From positions 1 through 43,382 of IMG/VR virus record IMGVR_UViG_3300018080_005156: a stretch of DNA of 43,382 nt, one strand, 5' to 3'. Within the stretch, counting starts at the first letter, position 1. Each line of letters opens with the position of its first letter. This DNA is from a virus. Taxonomy: Duplodnaviria > Caudoviricetes. The notes beneath the pieces were generated by a model. That model was not told where the DNA came from and did not search any database. It saw nothing but the letters and a program-made list of their open reading frames with translations. Positions 5,287 to 43,364 of the stretch are shown piece by piece. The translations under genes were made by a program, and so were the position numbers.

Positions 5287-7169
5287 TATATATCCCTAAC
5301 TTTAAGATCCTCATATATCATTTTGACATTTGTAGCATCAGGAAACGTTTGACCTGAACTAGTATGATCACCAATGAATACAAAAAACTTTTCATCATCC
5401 AAAAAATGAGCATTATGAGTAGCAGCTCTAGATAAACCAAATGGTTCATCAGATCTGATACTAGCCACTTCATGCCAATTAGTGCCAGAATCAAATGTAC
5501 GCATAACTTTAGTTGCTAATCGTACAGGTTTAACCCTATTAGTTGCATTCAATGTACCATTACCATCACCATATGAAGAACCGGTGCCCGAATGGCCAAG
5601 ATGACTATAAATATACCCAGCAGTATGTGTTGTACTATTCCAAGGAATACCAGCTGAATAATCGTTATCTACAACAAGATATCTACAACCGGTAAATACA
5701 CTAGTCTGTGTTGATTCCATTTCACCAACCATTTCACCAGCATCTTTTACATTTGCATCATCTAACGGTAAACCTAGTCCATCCGGTATATAACTTACTA
5801 CAAAATCCCAACAGGTATCGCTATAAGGTACGATCGCATGTACTTTTGCTATACTACCTTCTGGACGACACAAACTTTCATGCCCCCAAATATCTGTAGT
5901 TATTTCCTTCTGCGTCCAAGATGAACCAGACCAATAAGCAAGATATACATTATCAATTCTATTATCACCTGAATAATCCTCATAAACGTATACCACAACA
6001 GGCATACCGGTTTTTGTAATGACACCAGCCCTAAAATTCCATTTTTTATTACTAGGATCGGGTGATGTTGCAGGAACTTTACAGTTAGTATCAAGTTCAG
6101 AATTAGTTATATATCCACTAGAAACAACATTTTTAGAAAATTCATCACTACCAGTACTTTTCCAAGACTGTATGTTTTCCCAAGTGATTCCATCTTCACT
6201 ATGCAAAAAATAAATATTATCAATACTATGACTATCTCCTGCATCATAATCTAAAACCAATATATTTATACCCTGGGATTTTGGACCAGCTAGTTGCATG
6301 TGATAAGCATAACCATCAGTTGCATCACCCAATCTCAAAACTTCAGTATCAGAATTAGCAGTACCACTCATATCCTTAAATGTATCACCGTCATCATCAG
6401 AATAAGCGGTATATACACTATCATATGAACCAGCGCGCCAAGTACAATGAAAATTACCGTTACTCAATTCCCAAATATGCGGATAAGATCTACCACTTGA
6501 TGTTATATCACCTATAGTAGTAAATGACGAAATACTTTCTGTAGCATTGGCTTTTTTATGGACCATTTCAGTATTATGCTGAGAATTAGCATCCCATGTC
6601 GTGCCAGTTTTGCCTTTTTCATGTAAAACATGTACATACCCACTAGAATCAACAAATGGAAACGCCATAACATGTGGGTCCGTCAAAGTAGCAATATCAA
6701 CCCCCAAATCAACTGGGGCAGCAAATTCACCTGTATCTACATCATAATACGATATATAATTAGTAGAATACACAATAGTAGGATTCCAATTACACCTACC
6801 GTGAAAAGTAAAATACACACGTCTGTATGTACCCTCATAGTACCAAGCCTGCATACCCAACGTTTGATAATTAAAAGGCAATTGCTGATGTCCTTTGAAC
6901 GAAGTATCTAAGGTACGTACAAAATTATAATCGCACAGTGTAGTTTTGTTGGGGTATCCAACTGGTTGCCATCTTCCAGTATACAAACTAGCACTTTCCG
7001 TTAATTCCGAAGTACTAACACGTATAGCAAAATACCTTTTATCTAAACTAAAAGTTGTCGTGTACCCATTACCAAGTTCATCATCGGCCCAAGCTATATA
7101 TACATAGTGACCTGTAGTATCGGTAAGATTAAGAGTATCTAAACATCTTGTAAAAATCGTATGAGCCAT
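5286..7169 (-). CDS. BNR/Asp-box beta-propeller protein (sialidase-like; putative tail spike)
   Basis: Asp-boxes SDDDGDTF, SEDGITW, TFDSGTNW; DPH...VDSSGYVHV and SYP motifs of BNR_4-type propellers; N-terminal YVYIAWADD fibre-type motif. Confidence 0.78.
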   Translation of the reverse strand: MAHTIFTRCLDTLNLTDTTGHYVYIAWADDELGNGYTTTFSLDKRYFAIRVSTSELTESASLYTGRWQPVGYPNKTTLCDYNFVRTLDTSFKGHQQLPFNYQTLGMQAWYYEGTYRRVYFTFHGRCNWNPTIVYSTNYISYYDVDTGEFAAPVDLGVDIATLTDPHVMAFPFVDSSGYVHVLHEKGKTGTTWDANSQHNTEMVHKKANATESISSFTTIGDITSSGRSYPHIWELSNGNFHCTWRAGSYDSVYTAYSDDDGDTFKDMSGTANSDTEVLRLGDATDGYAYHMQLAGPKSQGINILVLDYDAGDSHSIDNIYFLHSEDGITWENIQSWKSTGSDEFSKNVVSSGYITNSELDTNCKVPATSPDPSNKKWNFRAGVITKTGMPVVVYVYEDYSGDNRIDNVYLAYWSGSSWTQKEITTDIWGHESLCRPEGSIAKVHAIVPYSDTCWDFVVSYIPDGLGLPLDDANVKDAGEMVGEMESTQTSVFTGCRYLVVDNDYSAGIPWNSTTHTAGYIYSHLGHSGTGSSYGDGNGTLNATNRVKPVRLATKVMRTFDSGTNWHEVASIRSDEPFGLSRAATHNAHFLDDEKFFVFIGDHTSSGQTFPDATNVKMIYEDLKVRDI

Positions 7170-8246: not shown

Positions 8247-8852
8247 TTATTTTCTTTTAGTCAATTCAACTTTAAGGTCTAAAATACTATCCCAATCCTC
8301 TTTGAAAGCTTTTGACCTTACCTCATCTGATTTAAGAATTAACGATTCATCTATATGATAACTAAATACCATATCAAAATCGCAATTAATATCATAATGT
8401 TTAATCCCCTCATTACCAGGCAAATCACGCCACTCCTTATTAAAATAATAAAATGACCAATCCAACATATACCTAACATGAGTTGGATCACCATAAGCCC
8501 TAGAATGTTTAGCATGAGGCACTTGAATATGTGCCTTTCCACCTGGTTCCAATATTCTATAAAGTTCGTCCATGAACTTCAGTACCCCATCTATATACGG
8601 CTCAGAGGCTTTTGCCTTAAATTCTTCAAACGTTTCACAACTTTTAGCCACCACACGCCAACTATCGTGTGGAATATGTTCCATATAATGATGACAATGT
8701 ATTTCCTTAACACTATTACTTTCAATAGGCCACGGATATACATTTAAATCATGAACGAGATCAATACCTTCTGCAGCAACAACATCAATACCAAAAAATC
8801 CCTCCATTTTATTGCTGCCACACGCCAAATCAATTTTTGTCTTATCAACCAT
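8247..8852 (-). CDS. Class I SAM-dependent methyltransferase (Methyltransf_11-like)
   Basis: KIDLACG motif I, GID, DLNVYPWP, HYMEHI, ELYRILEPGG; likely start MVDKTK at 8852, directly after the upstream stop. Confidence 0.88.
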   Translation of the reverse strand: MVDKTKIDLACGSNKMEGFFGIDVVAAEGIDLVHDLNVYPWPIESNSVKEIHCHHYMEHIPHDSWRVVAKSCETFEEFKAKASEPYIDGVLKFMDELYRILEPGGKAHIQVPHAKHSRAYGDPTHVRYMLDWSFYYFNKEWRDLPGNEGIKHYDINCDFDMVFSYHIDESLILKSDEVRSKAFKEDWDSILDLKVELTKRK

Positions 8853-8853
8853 T

Positions 8854-9585
8854 TTACCACACTTTATCGTTCTTGCTGTCATAATGACCCACAAGAATTC
8901 TATTATCTACAGCAAATTTATATCCTTTTTGAGCAGCTTTTCTAAAAAAATAAAAATCTTGAGTCATTTTCCTTTCTACTCCTCTTTCATCAACACCTTC
9001 GACTGTTTCAAACCACGGTTCCTCAATATCACGAAATATTTCAGTTTTAAATAATGTAAAACCCATGCCCAAAGCATTGCATCTTTGTACTTCCCCCGTT
9101 TTAGGGGTCTGAGCAGCAGAATCTAAATACCCATTCTCAGGATTACCAAATATCATGGGAAAGCCATCTTCATATTTTCCCCAATATAACCCACCAACAA
9201 CATCATACTCATCCATACTTTCATATAGTCTAAGTAATCCATCAACAGGTGGAAGATTATCTTCCTCCATTGTGAGAATATACTTACACCTGCCCAGCAA
9301 CTTACTGTTTACAACATAATTTACTAACGCATTGTAAGCCTTATCAACCTGCATACTCTCTGCAAAAATAGGACCATATACATTGTGATTCAATGGTCTT
9401 TGTAATTTCATCCATGATTGGACAACTCTTGTTGGAAACGTTCCCCTAGTTGGGCAAATAATCACAGTAGACAAATCTTTGTACATACCTGATTTCTTGA
9501 CCCGCTCAATTGATTCCTCTAAATGTTCATTATGCCCACCGATATCTACAGTATCTCCTGTAACTCCAATTATCTGTGGTTTCAT
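8854..9585 (-). CDS. GT-A fold glycosyltransferase (GT2-like)
   Basis: VIICPTRG, YILTMEED (DxD-like), DVVGGLY, GMGFTLFKTEIF, QDFYFFRK, VGH motifs typical of phage GT-A enzymes; likely start MKPQII at 9585. Confidence 0.85.
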   Translation of the reverse strand: MKPQIIGVTGDTVDIGGHNEHLEESIERVKKSGMYKDLSTVIICPTRGTFPTRVVQSWMKLQRPLNHNVYGPIFAESMQVDKAYNALVNYVVNSKLLGRCKYILTMEEDNLPPVDGLLRLYESMDEYDVVGGLYWGKYEDGFPMIFGNPENGYLDSAAQTPKTGEVQRCNALGMGFTLFKTEIFRDIEEPWFETVEGVDERGVERKMTQDFYFFRKAAQKGYKFAVDNRILVGHYDSKNDKVW

Positions 9586-9612
9586 AATATAAATATATGA
9601 AAATTTTAAGGA

Positions 9613-9632
9613 GGGGGAAAACATGTTCCCCC
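9613..9632 (-). terminator. Intergenic GC hairpin (probable terminator/attenuator after the capsid accessory genes)
   Basis: GGGGGAA-AACATG-TTCCCCC inverted repeat between 9647-10027 and the glycosyltransferase. Confidence 0.5.
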
Positions 9633-20143: not shown

Positions 20144-20704
20144 TTAATCGTTTTCATCTGGTATCTCATAATCCCCAATATCGCTACCACCACGAGCCCT
20201 ACTTTGTTCAAGTTGCTCTTTCTGAACTTGTCTTTCTAACATATCCAAAGACTTTACAATACCCCCTATCTCTTTCAGATTAGCACTAATTTCCTTAGCC
20301 GTATATAATGGACGACCATCCCTATCACGGGCATCCATATCTATACCAAAAAACCAATCAGTCAACTTTTCAGCACCAAACTTCGCAGCACGCAAAAGGC
20401 GAGTATTAGTCGTCTCACGAAATTCTTTATACCGCTCAATAGCAGCTTCTAAGAACCCGTCAGGTTCGTAATCCTCGCCTCCCAAAAAATCTTTCTTGAG
20501 AACTTTTATCCGCTGATCTTCCGGATATGCCTCAAAATACGGAGAGTTATAATCACACAGAAAGGCCACAAAGGATATTTCCCTCGTCGCCCGCTCCTTG
20601 GATTTAGTCTTGTCTCTATCCCACAACGCCTTAAACGGTGGGATCGCTAGGGATTCCTCATTAATGGTAATTTTCCCAGCTTGTATATCAAAGAGTTTTG
20701 CCAT
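20144..20704 (-). CDS. Conserved crAss-like protein upstream of TerL (possible terminase small subunit)
   Basis: 186 aa; LAIPPFKALWDRDKTKSK...DYNSPY motif, helical; synteny with TerL. Confidence 0.6.
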   Translation of the reverse strand: MAKLFDIQAGKITINEESLAIPPFKALWDRDKTKSKERATREISFVAFLCDYNSPYFEAYPEDQRIKVLKKDFLGGEDYEPDGFLEAAIERYKEFRETTNTRLLRAAKFGAEKLTDWFFGIDMDARDRDGRPLYTAKEISANLKEIGGIVKSLDMLERQVQKEQLEQSRARGGSDIGDYEIPDEND

Positions 20705-21606
20705 TCGAAAAATTGTGACATGGTCCTCACCTGTTGGACCTCAACAAAACCCCTTAGTTCCTCTATAATATTTTTTCTATCAAGATAAACAAAATCAATG
20801 GCTTTATCAATACCATTAATATAATTTAAATGATCAAATAATTTATCTTTTAATTCGCCCCCCAAAACTAAAGTCGCCAACAACTTATTGTAAGCTATTT
20901 CCCACGACTCCGGCTTAAATCTATTCTTTTTAACTATAAACCAATGGCCGGTTTCCACCCTGATATCTATTTTATTGGAGCCCCCCAGCATCCAATTTTT
21001 AATAGAAATATAAGGCTCAAGACACCCCCAATGGTAATGACCTTTAAAACCTTTTATATATTTATACCATTGTTTATTAACTGCATATACCGCACCAAGT
21101 ATACACGGCACTTCGTATACTGACTCCGCTGACAAAGTCTCAGCAAGCCATTTGGTACGCAACACTGTAGTCTCAGGTACAAAGTCTTCAATAAATGCAC
21201 CATAACCTTTAACAATACCTGAGTCATCAACACTTAAAGCATGTTCATGTAAATTTAAACATGTACTACAGTATAACGCTTTAGAATCCTCCCGTAAATC
21301 TGAAAGAAAATGATCTAACCAATCACCCCCTTTGAATACAATATCGCCACCACAAAGAATAATATTATCAGTATTAGCCCGGTCAACACCTGCATCAAAG
21401 GCGGCTCCAATTCCTTGCCTTTCTCCGAATTGAAAACGCCTAATTTCTTGGTCATAAGTATATGTATAAGTTTCTGTAGACGCATCATCAATTAATAATA
21501 TTTCAACTCGTTCACGTATACTAGGATGTATAGAATCCAGCAACAGTTGTACAAGACCAGCTTCATTGTGGTAACCTATAACAATTGATGCCTCTATTAC
21601 TCCCAT
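20647..21606 (-). CDS. GT-A glycosyltransferase (GT2 / polypeptide GalNAc-transferase-like)
   Basis: SIVIGYHNEA, EILLIDDAS, RQGIGAA, PCILGAVYAV, WGCLEPYISIKNWMLGG, GHWF correspond to GT27/GT2 motifs. Confidence 0.82.
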   Translation of the reverse strand: MGVIEASIVIGYHNEAGLVQLLLDSIHPSIRERVEILLIDDASTETYTYTYDQEIRRFQFGERQGIGAAFDAGVDRANTDNIILCGGDIVFKGGDWLDHFLSDLREDSKALYCSTCLNLHEHALSVDDSGIVKGYGAFIEDFVPETTVLRTKWLAETLSAESVYEVPCILGAVYAVNKQWYKYIKGFKGHYHWGCLEPYISIKNWMLGGSNKIDIRVETGHWFIVKKNRFKPESWEIAYNKLLATLVLGGELKDKLFDHLNYINGIDKAIDFVYLDRKNIIEELRGFVEVQQVRTMSQFFEWQNSLIYKLGKLPLMRNP

Positions 21607-29878: not shown

Positions 29879-30586
29879 ATGAACACAGAAGATGTTGCAA
29901 AAATCGTTGACGCTGTACTAAATCAAAAGAAAAATGTCAGTGCCAACTCTCCAAGCAGTAGTACAGGCAAAGCACCATCCCAAGCTCATGACGTTGTAGC
30001 AGTTGACTTTGCCAAAGCAAAACAACCAGACGGATCAGAACGCCAATTCTGGTCACTACGCTTGGAAAAGAAAAATGCCAAACTTGGTCAACAATCCAGG
30101 CTGTATGGCAAAGCAATCTTTGAAGACACCCACTCAGTGCTCTACACAAAGATCCTGCAAATGTATGACAAACTCAGGGAAAAAGACAATCCCATGGAAG
30201 AACTGGCAAAAACCATCAATCAACAAGGCGGGATTTACGGTTCAGAAAACACAGTCTTCCTGAAAGACCAGCATGGTCAAGACATGTTCTATTGGCCCTG
30301 GGATCGTGAAAATGATCGTCCACTCAGACCTGATCCTGATGATCCCAACAAACCAGCAGAATCAAGCAAAACAAACAAATTGACATTCTTTTTGCTGGAA
30401 GATGAAGACATCCCAACAGCAACAAGGAATGCATTGAGGCGAATCAGTGAACATTTGGTTGACGAAAGCCAATCATTTGAAGGTGCCCAAATCGATGCTG
30501 CATCAGGCGATATACTCGATGATGCCAATGAACCAGACAAATCAGAGAAAAGCAACGAACCACCGGCACCGCCCAAAGTCAAGTAA
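29879..30586 (+). CDS. Hypothetical early protein with acidic/Pro-rich tail
   Basis: Long ORF (ATG 29879 with AAA leader), followed by a terminator. Confidence 0.75.
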   Translation: MNTEDVAKIVDAVLNQKKNVSANSPSSSTGKAPSQAHDVVAVDFAKAKQPDGSERQFWSLRLEKKNAKLGQQSRLYGKAIFEDTHSVLYTKILQMYDKLREKDNPMEELAKTINQQGGIYGSENTVFLKDQHGQDMFYWPWDRENDRPLRPDPDDPNKPAESSKTNKLTFFLLEDEDIPTATRNALRRISEHLVDESQSFEGAQIDAASGDILDDANEPDKSEKSNEPPAPPKVK

Positions 30587-36805: not shown

Positions 36806-36864
36806 TCTTACGTTAGATATATATCGTGCTGTATTGGACCGGGGTTTGACTCCCCGCAGCTCCA
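36806..36864 (+). ncRNA. ssrA: tmRNA acceptor piece (3' half) of a permuted two-piece tmRNA
   Basis: GAC-CGGGG-TTTGACT-CCCCG T-arm, acceptor strand CAGCTCC plus discriminator A; upstream segments complementary to the coding piece. Confidence 0.88.
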
Positions 36865-37101
36865 CATGAAGGTAGTGATGTTGGGTCGTGCCGCGTTGTG
36901 CCCATTGAAACATGCTACTGAAGGGGTTTAGGCCAGAGGCGGCCGTGACTGCCTAGCCCCGTTTTAACATATCTGCCAATTGGTGTAGAGTAACGCCTGG
37001 TTATGCTTAGCCTTGACGATCCATCGGATGTACTGGTGAGGATAGCATAACAAAAGATGCATATGTCGCAGGTTGCAAGACTATGCCCGTTACTTGTTAT
37101 T

Positions 37102-37175
37102 GGTCCCATCGTCTAATGGCTAGGACGCTTTACTCTTGCGAGGAAGAGACAGTGGTTCGAATCCGCTTGGGACTA
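37102..37175 (+). tRNA. tRNA-like gene (Glu-type body, irregular anticodon arm; identity undetermined)
   Basis: Acceptor GGTCCCA/TGGGACT, D-arm GTCT-AATGGCTA-GGAC, T-arm AGTGG-TTCGAAT-CCGCT; anticodon region CTTTACTCTTGCGAGGAAG is 2 nt too long; no encoded CCA. Confidence 0.75.
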
Positions 37176-37181
37176 CTTTAT

Positions 37182-37306
37182 GGGGCTGATGGAATTTTGA
37201 CAGTATAGAATTCGGTATATATTGATGATGCGTAAGATGTGCTAATAACCGGCGATAATGGTTATAACAGGGCCTTAGGCCGCTCATTAGATTGGGCCGC
37301 TTAAGG
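37182..37306 (+). ncRNA. ssrA: tmRNA coding piece (5' half plus tag reading frame GDNGYNRALGRSLDWAA*)
   Basis: 5' GGGGCTGA...GAC, AATAAC-C-GGC resume context at 37251, tag ending AA-TAA at 37304, hairpin CCTTAGGC..GCTCA/TGGGC..GCTTAAGG over the stop codon. Confidence 0.9.
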
Positions 37307-38511: not shown

Positions 38512-38539
38512 CAACAAATTATAAAACTTTTAAGTCAAA

Positions 38540-40309
38540 ATGGAAACAAACAAAGTAAATGTTGAACTGTTAGATGTTGCGCTACGCTCATTTGAGTTTT
38601 TCAACGAACAAATCTTAAGAAAGTATGCAACAAATAACATTTTAATTGGGTCCGATCCTCATGCGGAAAAAGAAGCCGCACGAATACGAATGACTCAGTT
38701 ATATAAGTTTATCACTCATCAGGTTGATAATTTAACCGAAGATGAGAGGGAGGAGGTAATGAAAGATCTCGCTAGGCGAGCGGTCACACCTTCTCATGGA
38801 AATGGTAAACGCGACGACGTTACCCGCGAAGACTCGGCTACTGAGGCTGCTGAGAAAACGGAGAAAACAGACTCTAAGAGTAATTCCACATTAAAATCTC
38901 GAGACATTAAAAAAGTTATCAAAAAAACAGAAAAGGAGATAAATGATGAGGAGGCTCAAGAAACTGCGGAAACCCAACAAAAAGATGGGACAAGCTCGGA
39001 GAAAGAGAAATCTGAAAACGCACCTGAAAAAGGCCATTACACTCGAGCCGAAAGTTCCAAAGAAGGTGAAACACAAGAAATTGAAACTTTTGAAAACCGC
39101 TTGTCTGAAGAGAAAGATGAGCATGGTCGAGTAAAAATTCCCGCTTCAAGAATTATTGCCTTTGATGAGGAATTGAAAGGAATTCTTAAAAAGGGCAATG
39201 AAGAAAAAGGTGGAACAAGGACTGCAATGACAACCTGTCAGCAAAAAATTGGTGAGTTCTACCGTGGTTCAACTGAAGTTCAGCTGAGCGATGAGACCGG
39301 AAACCACAAACATAGGAATGTGTATATTTCCAATTTGCGTAAAATTATGCAGAATGAACGAGGCGAATTCAAGGCTCGTGTAAAAGACATTAAACGTAAA
39401 TTACGTGACAAAGTGGTTAAAACCGGTAAAGTGGTAACCCCCCAACTCGATGCCCAGTTGACCGCTCAAGCTAAAGCGGAAGCCGGCAGAATTATGGAAG
39501 AGAAAAAGAAAAAGTTGTTGGAAGAGGCTGAACAAATGGTCAAAGAGAAGAAGCTCAAAGAAATTCCCAAAAGTATCAGGGAAACTGCAGCAGAAGCTGA
39601 GGGAAAGCAAAATCAGTCCTCCAAGCCTGACGAAGGAAACGAGGCTGATGCAGAGACAGCAGGAAAACTTGCCAAAGACAAAACCTCATTAATCAAAGGA
39701 GATGGATTAGAGGGAATTGTACCGGACGCTGAATCCGTTGCTGATAAAGAAGAGAATGAAGAGGAAAAAAGTGACTTCGACAGAGCAGTCGAAAACGGGG
39801 CGAAAGAGCTAAAAGAGGAGCTTGAAAACCAAGGGAACGAGGAAAATGAGGTATCGGATGAAGAGGAAACTCCGGAAGAATTGCAGGAAGAGTATGCCGG
39901 TGAAAGTGAAGAGGACGAAGGTGAAGTTCAAGCAGACGGTAAGACTAAAGTTCTTACACCCGAGGAAATTCAAGCTGCTTCCGAAAAAAGTGATGTGGTA
40001 GTTCCTCCTATCCCCCCACCAGACGAAGATGAAGAAGAAGATGATAATGGGGGAAAATCTTTGGCTGAAATGACCTTTGAAACAGACAAAGAATTAGTGA
40101 TGGAACTTGAGAAGTATATCACCAAGAAAGGAAATCACTATGGTTTTCATGAATACAGAGACGAAGCGGTATTGGCAGTTGTTGTCCACTTTGGTGCTGA
40201 TAGTTGGGCTAAAAATAAAGGTTCGGTTCACAAGTGGTTGGACGAAGTGGTGAGCAATTACAACGCGCGAGTTCGTGCAGAGGAAAAAGCTGATAAAATA
40301 CCAGCATAA
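38540..40309 (+). CDS. Large Glu/Lys-rich, largely disordered/coiled-coil hypothetical protein
   Basis: 589 aa open frame, AAAATG start, low-complexity acidic tracts. Confidence 0.85.
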   Translation: METNKVNVELLDVALRSFEFFNEQILRKYATNNILIGSDPHAEKEAARIRMTQLYKFITHQVDNLTEDEREEVMKDLARRAVTPSHGNGKRDDVTREDSATEAAEKTEKTDSKSNSTLKSRDIKKVIKKTEKEINDEEAQETAETQQKDGTSSEKEKSENAPEKGHYTRAESSKEGETQEIETFENRLSEEKDEHGRVKIPASRIIAFDEELKGILKKGNEEKGGTRTAMTTCQQKIGEFYRGSTEVQLSDETGNHKHRNVYISNLRKIMQNERGEFKARVKDIKRKLRDKVVKTGKVVTPQLDAQLTAQAKAEAGRIMEEKKKKLLEEAEQMVKEKKLKEIPKSIRETAAEAEGKQNQSSKPDEGNEADAETAGKLAKDKTSLIKGDGLEGIVPDAESVADKEENEEEKSDFDRAVENGAKELKEELENQGNEENEVSDEEETPEELQEEYAGESEEDEGEVQADGKTKVLTPEEIQAASEKSDVVVPPIPPPDEDEEEDDNGGKSLAEMTFETDKELVMELEKYITKKGNHYGFHEYRDEAVLAVVVHFGADSWAKNKGSVHKWLDEVVSNYNARVRAEEKADKIPA

Positions 40310-40465
40310 GCGGTAAAGATATTCATCCCAGTTATCTAGAGAACTCAAATGAGACTTAAGGAAAAATTTGAGATGTTACCGGCTCAAATTCCCTTCTGTT
40401 GTCCTGGTGATGGCAAAGCTAGGTTAGACTATCTTGCAAATTTTCTCAACTTTGTCAGAATATAG

Positions 40466-40659
40466 TCAGTAATTTGGGGGGCCGTCCAACTAATAAGGCC
40501 GGATTACCGGAATAGTATTTCGCACCTAACGGTAGCGGACTTAAGCAGGTATGCCTGTTCATGCTGAAAAACACAGGGAACTGTTGTTAGTACAGTTATA
40601 ACTCTCGGGTTAGTATGCTATTTACCTGAAAAATGGTACATGAGGTTGGGGATAACTGG
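40466..40659 (+). ncRNA. Putative multibranched structured RNA (unknown family)
   Basis: Closing stems TCAGT/ACTGG and TCCAACT/GGTTGGG; internal CCGG-ATTA-CCGG, AATAGTAT/ATGCTATT, AGCAGG-TATG-CCTGTT, AACTGT/ACAGTT, TAACTC/GGGTTA. Confidence 0.55.
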
Positions 40660-40723
40660 GTTTGCTTTTTAATAAAATAATCACATTAATAATATATTAT
40701 GGGAAAGTTACGCAATCCCATGG

Positions 40724-41314
40724 ATGACAGTGAACATATTCCTAGGGAAAAGATGCGTCGTACTAAACCACGCAAAAATGCAAAGAACATACGTAGCAAA
40801 ATGCGTGAACATAACAGAAGAGTACAACGAAAATCAAAAGGACGAGGAAGATAGAGACATGTCAAAATTTGTTTCGCAAGAGAAGAAAATGAGCTCTGTA
40901 ATTAGAGCTTCAAAGGAGATAATTAATTTAAAATTATCTCTTGGAGAACTAAGAAAAGCGGTGGTTCGCTTGGAAAAAACCAACGTTGATGCTGTTATCA
41001 GGCTAAGAGTAATTGAGAATGAGGTACATGCGCGTATACTCGCTGTTCAAAATTACATAGCCGCGGTAATGAAAGATGTAACAGCTAATATTCCCTTTTT
41101 CCCAGCTATTACACACTTTACTCAGGTTGAATTAGATAATGGTTATGCAATAGTCGAAATATCAATGAGTGAAGATGGGCCAGAGTACTTTGATGATGAA
41201 GGCGATTTCGTAGAAAGATTTTTGCGGTATGCGATCATACTGCACAACGGTAAAACCATTCCATTTATTGCTGCGAATTCACAAGTCATACTCAATGAGG
41301 CACGACCTGTGTAA
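40724..41314 (+). CDS. Hypothetical protein (start uncertain, possibly 40859)
   Basis: 196 aa ORF with coiled-coil segment. Confidence 0.65.
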   Translation: MTVNIFLGKRCVVLNHAKMQRTYVAKCVNITEEYNENQKDEEDRDMSKFVSQEKKMSSVIRASKEIINLKLSLGELRKAVVRLEKTNVDAVIRLRVIENEVHARILAVQNYIAAVMKDVTANIPFFPAITHFTQVELDNGYAIVEISMSEDGPEYFDDEGDFVERFLRYAIILHNGKTIPFIAANSQVILNEARPV

Positions 41315-41322
41315 TATAAATT

Positions 41323-43026
41323 GGGCCCAGCGGGCAAGGTGACAGAGACCTACGCGGGGGTTTAAGACCCCCACCCGCACTATTGGTTCTCCCTTCGGGG
41401 GATGCTGAACTGTGGCGTTGTACACTACAGAGGACCCGCGTTAACCTAAGCAAAACCTGAATGAGGGGTTCAGTTCACTTTTGTTATAGATACCATCGGT
41501 AATAAGCTACATTTTCGCAATGTTAAACCCTTGGAGCCAGGAGTTGACAGAGGAAGGGCTAACTAGCTAGAAGGAAGGGGCCATGCGCAGTACGTGTACT
41601 GTAAATATGGATGTCTGGAAAACCAACCATGTAGGTCATTTTCAATAGACCCTGAACGGTTGGGGCGAGTGTTGCAGGCGTAACGTTTATAACGAATAGT
41701 GACGCGGCGATTGCAAGCAGTTCAAAAATTGCTGGAGGATGGGCACGTTATTAGTACTAACCCTTATATACAATTAGGTCACGGGGAGAGAGTGATTCAA
41801 ACCTGACATTTCCTCGTGTGGCGAAAGCAACGAGGTACAACATACGAGTGTACAAAAAGGTTGTTATAGGGGCCGATTGGGGACACATCCCTCATTAGGA
41901 TGTTTGCACTATAACGATTTATAAAGACTTTCATAAATAGCACTCTATTGGCTGATCGCTGACAGGTAACACCGTTGAGGCCATTAACCGTCCAAAGGGG
42001 AGCAGAAAATAAGACCCATTGTCATTATGAAAGCAGTAAAGTGTTAAAACAATCAATGTGGCTAGGGGAAACCGGTGTCAAAAACTGTGATCCTTAAAAA
42101 ATTGGACCTACACATTGACCAGCGTAAATGGGTAATTAAACTTAATCGTGAATGACGTAACGTGAAACTGCGTAAGGGGTATGTGCTCAAGGTGGAGAGA
42201 GCAGTTCGACCGGGGATAAACTCGTAAAGAGATCTATTCGTAATATAGATAGCTTCGGCTTATAAGTGAAAACCTTATTGTCTAGGTTGGATGTCATTAA
42301 TTTGCGTGCATAATTATGACTAAGTGCTTTTGTCAATATAATATTGGTTCGAATCCCACTACTCCGTCAGTGAATCAGTTATTCATAGCCTTGCTTTACG
42401 CGAAAGAAGTCCGTTGGTTTACATATCGTATCTGCAAAGGCAGATGGGTACTGCGTTGACGGTTATCCGCAGTGTGTGCTTATCAACTAAGCACCGTCCT
42501 TAAATACTATTTAATCTACGTGATATTACTTGGGTGAGCCAGCGAGCTTGCCTTCTGTCTAATCGGATTGCTCAGAGTTTTTGTGAAATCGGTTCGTTAA
42601 TTACAGATATTAACTAAAATGGAAACATTACCGAGCTGACGTGAAATCTCAGAGTAAGTAGCTAATACGTTGAGCCAAAGAGTAGTCATCAACAGGTTCG
42701 ATTCTTATAGTGGCAGAAAATATTGAAGTTGTCAAACTCGACCGGCTTGGGAGTAACAGTCGGCGATTTGTAGACGCCGACGTGTGTGTATTGTACGCGC
42801 ACGCAACCTTATGGGCTTAGGCTTCCATATAGCTAAGCGGACCATCAAAAGCGTAGAAAGGGATAGGTCGTGTAGTTGTGGAGATCTCAGTCACTTCAGT
42901 ATAATATCATTGCTTCCTAATTTGCGTGCATTGATAAAGTTGCAAGTTCATACCTGTGCAAAGGTATGTTTCTGAATACTAGAAAGGGTATTGATACGAC
43001 GACGCGCCCTTCTCTTCCAACCCGGT
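41323..43026 (+). ncRNA. ~1.7-kb non-coding array of structured RNA modules, including tRNA-like scaffolds
   Basis: No credible ORF; successive segments each closed by 7-12 bp terminal stems with G-U pairs on the + strand; GNRA/UUCG loops; T-loop motifs at about 41361, 42348 and 42697. Confidence 0.65.
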
Positions 43027-43049
43027 AATTAACAAAAAATTAAGTCAAA

Positions 43050-43364
43050 ATGATACACAATTGGATAAAAAAGATAGTAAGAACATTAGGTTCAATATTT
43101 GAAAGTCTGATACTTTTCCTACTTATAATTGTAGGGGTATTTATAGGTTTTACTATGATTTATGGAACCGGCTATAAAAAAGGACAGATTGATGCCATTG
43201 ATGGGAATTGGAAGTACGAGCGTATATATATGGTTCGTATAGAATGTCCAAAAAGTCGCAAAGATACATTAATCCCGGAAAAATGGTTATCTATACCCAG
43301 CGATACTATAATTAATCACTGGAATATAACTGGTTATGAAATTCAACACCGTAGAATTAAGTAA
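43050..43364 (+). CDS. Hypothetical membrane-anchored protein
   Basis: AAAATG start, TM helix followed by GYKKGQIDAIDG motif. Confidence 0.7.
   Translation: MIHNWIKKIVRTLGSIFESLILFLLIIVGVFIGFTMIYGTGYKKGQIDAIDGNWKYERIYMVRIECPKSRKDTLIPEKWLSIPSDTIINHWNITGYEIQHRRIK

Follow-up and report, generated by a model that had tools for sequence, protein, structure and literature searches.

A conserved, structured non-coding RNA locus of about 1.6 kb in an uncultured crAss-like phage, resembling GOLLD in layout

What does a phage encode in 1.7 kb of DNA in which no gene can be read? The question is raised by a locus near the end of the window, that is, the whole 43.4-kb stretch of DNA analysed here, which is a fragment (completeness about 42%) of the genome of an uncultured crAss-like phage. 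Its MCP is 60-65% identical to crAss-like phage capsid proteins, and terminase, portal and capsid PHROGs were assigned, with genes on the - strand. Glycosyltransferase- and methyltransferase-like genes were also noticed among the structural genes (8247-9624 and 20647-21606, -), and these may modify the capsid or the host surface. The turn of the GC skew lies near 30,000 rather than at 41315-43049, and from near 30,000 there runs a + strand block of small unknown genes which contains the locus. DNA of the window was found in sediment and seawater metagenomes (7 runs from 5 studies, none of them listed as RNA and one possibly the run from which the window itself came). An initial annotation, made from the sequence of the window, had reported no credible ORF over 1.7 kb, and indeed 41315-43049 (1735 nt) proved to be the longest stretch of the window without an ORF of at least 70 aa. 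Across the six frames the longest stop-free runs were 44-74 codons, and at most 107 codons if TAG or TGA is read through.

Evidence on the nature of this stretch came from a homologue. A 5.3-kb public contig matched four short non-coding islands at a near-constant offset, and a motif taken from one island led to three metagenome loci, namely the window's own contig, a strain at 99.2% (L210) and a distant locus (L209). L209 is collinear with the window and occupies the same place in a related phage, where a 522-aa acidic protein, a conserved intergenic element, a 51-aa basic ORF, a 140-aa ORF and an ORF-free region follow in this order. As compared by eye, the five genes behind the L209 locus correspond to those behind the locus in L210; the gene directly downstream of the locus is not the same in the two phages, and the flanking ORFs of the locus are complete. 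Past the end of the window, L210 carries a 379-aa ORF (8334-9473, +) with what we take to be metallophosphoesterase-like motifs. Between 37496 and 43382 the window and L210 showed 48 differences in 5887 nt, one of them inside the RNA region. These are clustered in patches (39373-39460 and 40876-41043), a pattern in the sequence which suggests recombination mosaics. Given this patchiness, and given that coding DNA next to the region is likewise unchanged, the near-identity with L210 was excluded as evidence.

The clade is very small: 7996 scored candidates yielded two clusters of the acidic protein, and 99 yielded three of the 151-aa protein upstream of the locus. At least one further relative exists. 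No homologue of the locus was found by blastn in annotated phages, and no further one in IMG/VR by protein or by five motif patterns, the loci retrieved with these patterns being chance matches by blastn, nhmmer or model R1; the best-looking of them, L264, is a levivirus-like contig. One motif gave 20 matches in GTDB genomes, all due to chance. Among 52 capsid-related records, 36 covered by blastn and 46 by model R1 yielded no homologue, nor did nhmmer on 40 stretches of 12 capsid-related records, and the closest relatives among them are fragments ending short of the locus.

When the window was aligned with L209, in which the whole locus measures about 1520 nt against about 1640 nt in the window (41384-43026), conservation took the form of two large domains flanking a variable linker with tRNA-like elements, an arrangement absent from the initial annotation. 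Identity was 64% in the 5' domain (392/611 aligned) and 70% in the 3' domain (441/629 aligned), and the alignment z against shuffles reached 21.7 and 34.7, respectively, against 2.0 for the linker, whose identity was 30-44% per 100 nt. Invariant runs of at least 8 nt numbered 9 in the 5' domain and 13 in the 3' domain (8-17 nt). Four-fold degenerate sites of the two flanking genes, on the other hand, were identical at 13 of 68 positions and are saturated. Protein coding through small ORFs or recoded stops was considered and rejected: there was no codon periodicity (mismatches by position modulo 3 were 73/72/74 and 57/66/65), the gaps in the alignment were mostly of 1-2 nt and frame-shifting, and the frames were short under three stop-codon sets.

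The changes between the two phages were found to preserve base pairing. Nine local helices formed in both sequences and contained two double changes or more, against 2.0 +/- 1.3 in 40 column shuffles (maximum 5), and the - strand gave a count of 0. Similarly, there were four conserved hairpins of -10 kcal/mol or below where 0.5 were expected, a number reached in 0/200 shuffles. We also performed a blind test, in which pairs of more than 0.7 probability were predicted from a single sequence and then checked in its partner. At positions with both bases changed, pairing was kept in 18/22 cases (window to L209) and 12/18 (reverse) in the 3' domain, and in 12/21 and 10/15 in the 5' domain, while the slid controls in the same order kept 27/84, 41/87, 29/82 and 26/84 and the coding controls 40/110. 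The binomial p was 5e-5 for 18/22, 0.07 for 12/21 and 0.03 for 10/15, the two directions of the test not being independent of each other, and the covariation signal of the 5' domain is moderate. Double changes were kept on the - strand too (15/23 and 13/16), as Watson-Crick pairs must be. The frequent G-U pairs had been read in the initial annotation as a mark of + strand RNA, which was borne out by singly changed pairs, kept in 28/59 cases on the + strand vs 9/49 on the - strand (Fisher p 0.002); this asymmetry points to the + strand RNA. As the alignment consists of only two divergent sequences, it is too shallow for a statistic of the R-scape type, and alternative helices are inseparable in it. 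We are highly confident that the locus is a real, conserved, structured non-coding RNA.

On the single sequence, helices of at least 7 bp showed no excess (476 vs 476 +/- 27 in 30 shuffles), 27 windows of 120 nt had a mean MFE z of -0.10 with none below -2, and whole-domain folding of the two domains gave z of -0.62 and -1.37. The initial annotation had itself named folding energy against shuffled controls as the test by which its proposal could fall, and the folding energy is no better than that of shuffles. We nevertheless take the RNA as real on account of the covariation; folding-energy screens miss RNAs of this type. A published virus-wide screen was confined to motifs of at most 151 nt in three or more copies, according to the available part of PMC10690425, and RNAs like this one would therefore have escaped it.

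At the 5' border of the RNA lies tRNA-like element 1 (41330..41382, +), with a minimal acceptor-like stem, one short arm, a T-arm-like hairpin and no anticodon arm (fold z -3.05, equalled by 0/200 shuffles). Its counterpart in L209 folds as a tRNA (41.4 bits with the Rfam tRNA model) in which the anticodon loop has given way to an extended stem. Element 1 is predicted to be a 5' processing mark. The 5' domain (41384..42052, +; about 670 nt) holds 13 consensus helices of at least 4 bp, whose 84 consensus pairs include 16 double and 19 single changes. An invariant 6-nt palindrome in one of its hairpin loops, at 41419, is a possible self-pairing contact, which shows no covariation because it does not vary. 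Next comes the variable linker (42053..42383, +), of 330 nt in the window and about 250 nt in L209. Inside it, sequence and MFE fold together point to a degenerate tRNA-like element 2 (42175..42370, +), composed of an acceptor-like helix, a D-arm-like hairpin, an insertion of about 120 nt and a T-loop (42346-42356). No Rfam tRNA hit was obtained in this region of the window, where the T-loop of element 2 alone scores (5.8 bits), the tRNA-like elements of the window being too degenerate for detection by Rfam or ARAGORN. In the linker of L209 a tRNA-like fold is found at 3445-3359 (19 bits, E 4.3). Directly behind it we noticed a third cloverleaf-like fold with an altered T arm (L209 3357-3291, -), which is absent from the window.

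The 3' domain (42384..43026, +; about 640 nt) is the most strongly conserved part, with 12 consensus helices and 85 consensus pairs, among them 20 double and 11 single changes. It opens with a 16-nt invariant run (42384-42399) for which no confident local partner was seen, and its last 286 nt form a subdomain which the helix 42741-42753/43014-43026 closes. Among the invariant loops of this domain, several are candidate pseudoknot or kissing partners, and for invariant bases left otherwise unpaired the two sequences yield as candidate tertiary contacts 42496-42501 with 42859-42864 and a loop-loop pairing of the hairpins 42596-42614 and 42759-42781. A perfect 14-nt direct repeat (42298-42311 / 42918-42931) was also observed, which L209 lacks and of which no third close copy exists in the window. 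The idea that the two domains are internal duplicates was rejected, as the best of four comparisons was matched by 9/200 shuffles and the others by 116-125.

We propose that the locus encodes one giant + strand RNA of about 1.6 kb, which is trimmed at tRNA-like marks and self-assembles like GOLLD and ROOL; the chances of this reading we judge to be evenly balanced. The RNA would be part of a longer early transcript, as no promoter could be assigned to it: a promoter and terminator scan of the locus gave none assignable, sigma-70-type sites were at chance (20 vs 15.3), and the Bacteroidetes-type -7 motif was not found in 40301-43049. An AT-rich motif is shared before start codons in the window (38528-38542 and 43038-43052) and before the L209 ORFs at 6970, 2085 and 8134, and is probably a translation-initiation or transcript-start signal of the gene block. 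The stack of acceptor and T arm is what tRNA-processing enzymes read. The tRNA-like elements retain this acceptor-plus-T-arm stack and have no normal anticodon arms, for which reason a role as cut marks or cargo is more likely than decoding, and host tRNA-processing enzymes would trim the RNA at these marks. Both domains, joined by the linker, would then stay in one molecule. By analogy with GOLLD and ROOL, whose cages form through kissing loops with variable linkers inside (PMC12286853 and PMC12990946, in their available parts), the conserved loops would likely drive self-assembly into an RNA-only particle via loop-loop contacts, and the same analogy suggests that it may store tRNA-like cargo or engage host ribosomes in infection. 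Complementarity bridging the domains was found between 41985-41991 and the invariant hairpin loop 42459-42465 (7-8 bp) and, weaker, between 42037-42043 and 42392-42398 (7 bp), a pairing which would close the linker. Inter-domain helices of -8 kcal/mol or below among free columns numbered 3 vs 0.9 expected (12/200 shuffles), and long-range helices of more than 300 nt were overall not above the null, the observed counts being reached by 36, 158 and 91 of 200 shuffles.

The marginal pairing between the domains is also what one would expect of two separate RNAs of about 650 nt, which host RNase P and RNase Z would separate at the tRNA-like elements and which would then either fold alone or pair in trans. 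Such a split is favoured by a linker which is unconserved (z 2.0) yet takes a tRNA-like fold in both phages, and by the size of each domain, which is that of ROOL or GOLLD (550-833 nt in the accessible text of PMC12990946). The same phage, moreover, has a permuted tmRNA, a form which the available part of PMC11915505 describes as matured by tRNA-processing enzymes. But invariant sequences flanking the linker complement each other, the 16-nt invariant run with which the 3' domain opens is left without a confident local partner, and GOLLD retains embedded tRNAs in one molecule, as far as PMC12990946 was available. We consider two separate RNAs rather unlikely.

The initial annotation had pictured about eight back-to-back, independently closed modules and had offered, as its second option, a polycistronic cluster of seven or eight small independent RNAs. 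All eight closing stems that it named are present where it had placed them. Retention of seven of the eight was checked against L209 with a shift of up to 3 nt allowed, and stems 2, 5 and 8 were kept above chance (null fractions 0.017, 0.017 and 0.004) and stem 1 was borderline (0.056), while stems 3, 4 and 7 were not kept above chance (0.19, 0.15 and 0.44). Stem 6 lies within the unconserved linker, and 0/8 of its pairs are kept on the alignment. The consensus fold favours 41761-41775 with 41859-41872 in place of stem 4, and a hairpin at 42532-42553 in place of stem 7. With only 3-4 of the 8 stems surviving comparison with the homologue, the picture of independent modules is right only in part. 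The few stems that were kept do lie back to back, as small RNAs would; however, conserved helices (41674-41681 with 41900-41907) span proposed module borders, the order and spacing of conserved blocks are retained over 1.6 kb, and none of the modules has a match among small-RNA or ribozyme families, so that a cluster of this kind appears very improbable.

Little probability is likewise left for a catalytic or cis-acting element, be it an intron-derived ribozyme, ORF-less or permuted and highly diverged, or a leader or antiterminator for the early genes that follow. The 3' domain is of the size of the group IIC-derived HYER ribozyme (637 nt in the accessible text of PMC12990946), many invariant nucleotides are single-stranded, and the locus lies within a block of genes on the same strand. 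Nevertheless, a pattern built from features of the group II domain V hairpin found no candidate in either sequence, and at E up to 10 there was no match to a model of a group I intron, a group II intron or a ribozyme (very diverged group I cores can escape the model). The completeness of the flanking ORFs and the difference in the directly downstream gene between the phages also speak against this reading. An element acting as DNA, such as a replication origin or a site for packaging or recombination, or else decayed DNA whose stems are due to chance, would suit the chance levels of stem counts and folding energy and the 14-nt repeat at 42298 and 42918, but is most improbable in view of conservation far above that of saturated synonymous sites, the compensatory changes, a G-U asymmetry favouring one RNA strand, the absence of the repeat from the homologue alignment and a GC skew turn near 30,000.

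The genes and RNAs upstream of the locus are partly shared with L209. A 589-aa acidic protein (38540..40309, +), 37% identical to the 522-aa L209 ORF, serves as upstream synteny marker, and no family was found for it in Pfam or PHROG. It is followed by a second conserved non-coding element (40310..40690, +; about 370 nt; L209 5410-5085, -) with 197/314 identical positions, an alignment z of 14.2, a 19-nt invariant run (40540-40558), several conserved stems and no Rfam match. Its blind covariation (8/14 and 8/13) is a weak signal; the element is probably an independent structured RNA in that block. Then come a 51-aa Lys/Arg-rich ORF (40699..40854, +), syntenic in L209 with a weak pairwise match (E 0.013), and, directly upstream of the RNA, a 151-aa ORF (40859..41314, +) which is 44% identical to the 140-aa ORF of L209. 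The former has no Pfam family and Atlas matches below 0.9, and is a candidate RNA-binding partner by its composition only; the latter gave no Pfam or PHROG family and no usable Atlas match.

Farther upstream, 4 kb from the RNA locus, lies a permuted (two-piece) tmRNA gene (36815-37304, +), matched by Rfam tmRNA_permuted at 34.9 bits (E 3.5e-5), which falls short of the cut-off, 47. It has an intervening segment of roughly 310 nt and the tag frame GDNGYNRALGRSLDWAA-stop. A tRNA-Ala(TGC) (37102-37175, +) sits within the intervening segment. Its anticodon is that of Ala, but the third acceptor pair is not G-U and the anticodon stem is irregular; the body we take to be Glu/Gln-like in appearance. 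According to the available part of PMC11915505, a tRNA-Ala inside a permuted tmRNA is unique to one nominally archaeal record, suspected of misbinning; the arrangement may be a trait of crAss-like phages. In another crAss-like genome (G007), ARAGORN calls a permuted tmRNA at L318 13826-14143, which shows that two-piece tmRNAs recur in crAss-like phages.

A wider reading, which we hold only tentatively and at somewhat less than an even chance, is that the whole 1.6-kb locus may be one RNA-only machine, clipped at anticodon-less tRNA mimics, in an RNA toolkit for host translation takeover. If true, this would be an RNA of 16S rRNA size, twice that of the largest ornate RNA whose structure has been solved, and the toolkit would comprise the upstream 370-nt RNA and the permuted tmRNA with a tRNA inside, in environmental crAss-like phages. 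GOLLD, ROOL and OLE are the few known large ornate RNAs and have recently been shown to form RNA-only assemblies; to our knowledge, their function is not yet known. RNAs of a new class which reach up to 1.6 kb and combine a GOLLD-like layout with unrelated sequence, in a lytic phage order, would put the generality of cages and of tRNA-like cargo to the test.

How does the RNA compare with known systems? The initial annotation had not recognised GOLLD or ROOL in the sequence, and in agreement with this cmscan of the region against Rfam (4227 families) gave nothing at the gathering cut-off, or when E up to 10 was allowed, nor was RNase P RNA, SRP RNA, 6S, tmRNA, rRNA or any small ribozyme above noise in the ORF-free region. 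L209 gave no GOLLD match at E up to 5 and no intron model match. Conservation that preserves base pairs, together with the lack of a match to any catalogued family, makes a new very large folded RNA likely; the earlier proposal of an undescribed large + strand RNA is thus upheld by conservation, by covariation with one distant homologue and by the Rfam result, while its modular layout is upheld only in part. In the open literature searched, including the available part of PMC8375218, an RNA of this sort is not described for crAss-like phages, although absence from print is unproven.

With HYER and permuted group II introns the locus shares the size of its 3' domain and a long closing stem with a single mismatch. 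It is, like lnc001 and lnc002 of Staphylococcus phage K (635 and 1154 nt, intergenic, abundant and beside tRNA genes; PMC9241854), a long intergenic phage RNA, but belongs to a different phage group; the accessible text of that source holds no covariation model for the two, and the annotated phage collection gave no sequence match to the locus. ROOL (RF03087) is a phage or prophage RNA found near tRNAs, with a disordered linker and RNA-only cages, in the available parts of PMC12286853 and PMC12990946. Each domain here is similar in size to the 550-600 nt of ROOL, but two such domains stand in tandem; cmscan gave no ROOL match at E up to 10, and a genome search was also blank, its control being silent.

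As for GOLLD, its model (RF02032) had 0 matches in the genome of the window (G000) at E up to 10, with 6 candidates scored. The locus measures about 1640 nt, roughly double the 700-833 nt of GOLLD, its tRNA-like parts are without a normal anticodon arm, and it comes from a crAss-like phage, outside the hosts named for GOLLD in the parts of PMC12286853 and PMC12990946 available to us. The 25 consensus helices found here come from two sequences, too shallow a basis for mapping them onto GOLLD P1-P27. On the side of likeness, both are phage-encoded and large, have many helices and lie behind a tRNA or tRNA-like element, as does the env-38 GOLLD downstream of a tRNA (PMC12286853, PMC12990946, as above). 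In the same sources, the 3' region of GOLLD is described as conserved and its 5' region as less so, and its variable linker as containing a tRNA in some cases. Here too the 3' domain is better conserved than the 5' domain (70% vs 64%) and the linker is variable (z 2.0), and a tRNA or tRNA-like fold stands at the 5' border and in the linker of both phages, in degenerate form in the window. We conclude that the RNA of this locus, which departs from GOLLD in model match and length, is likely new and resembles GOLLD in its layout.
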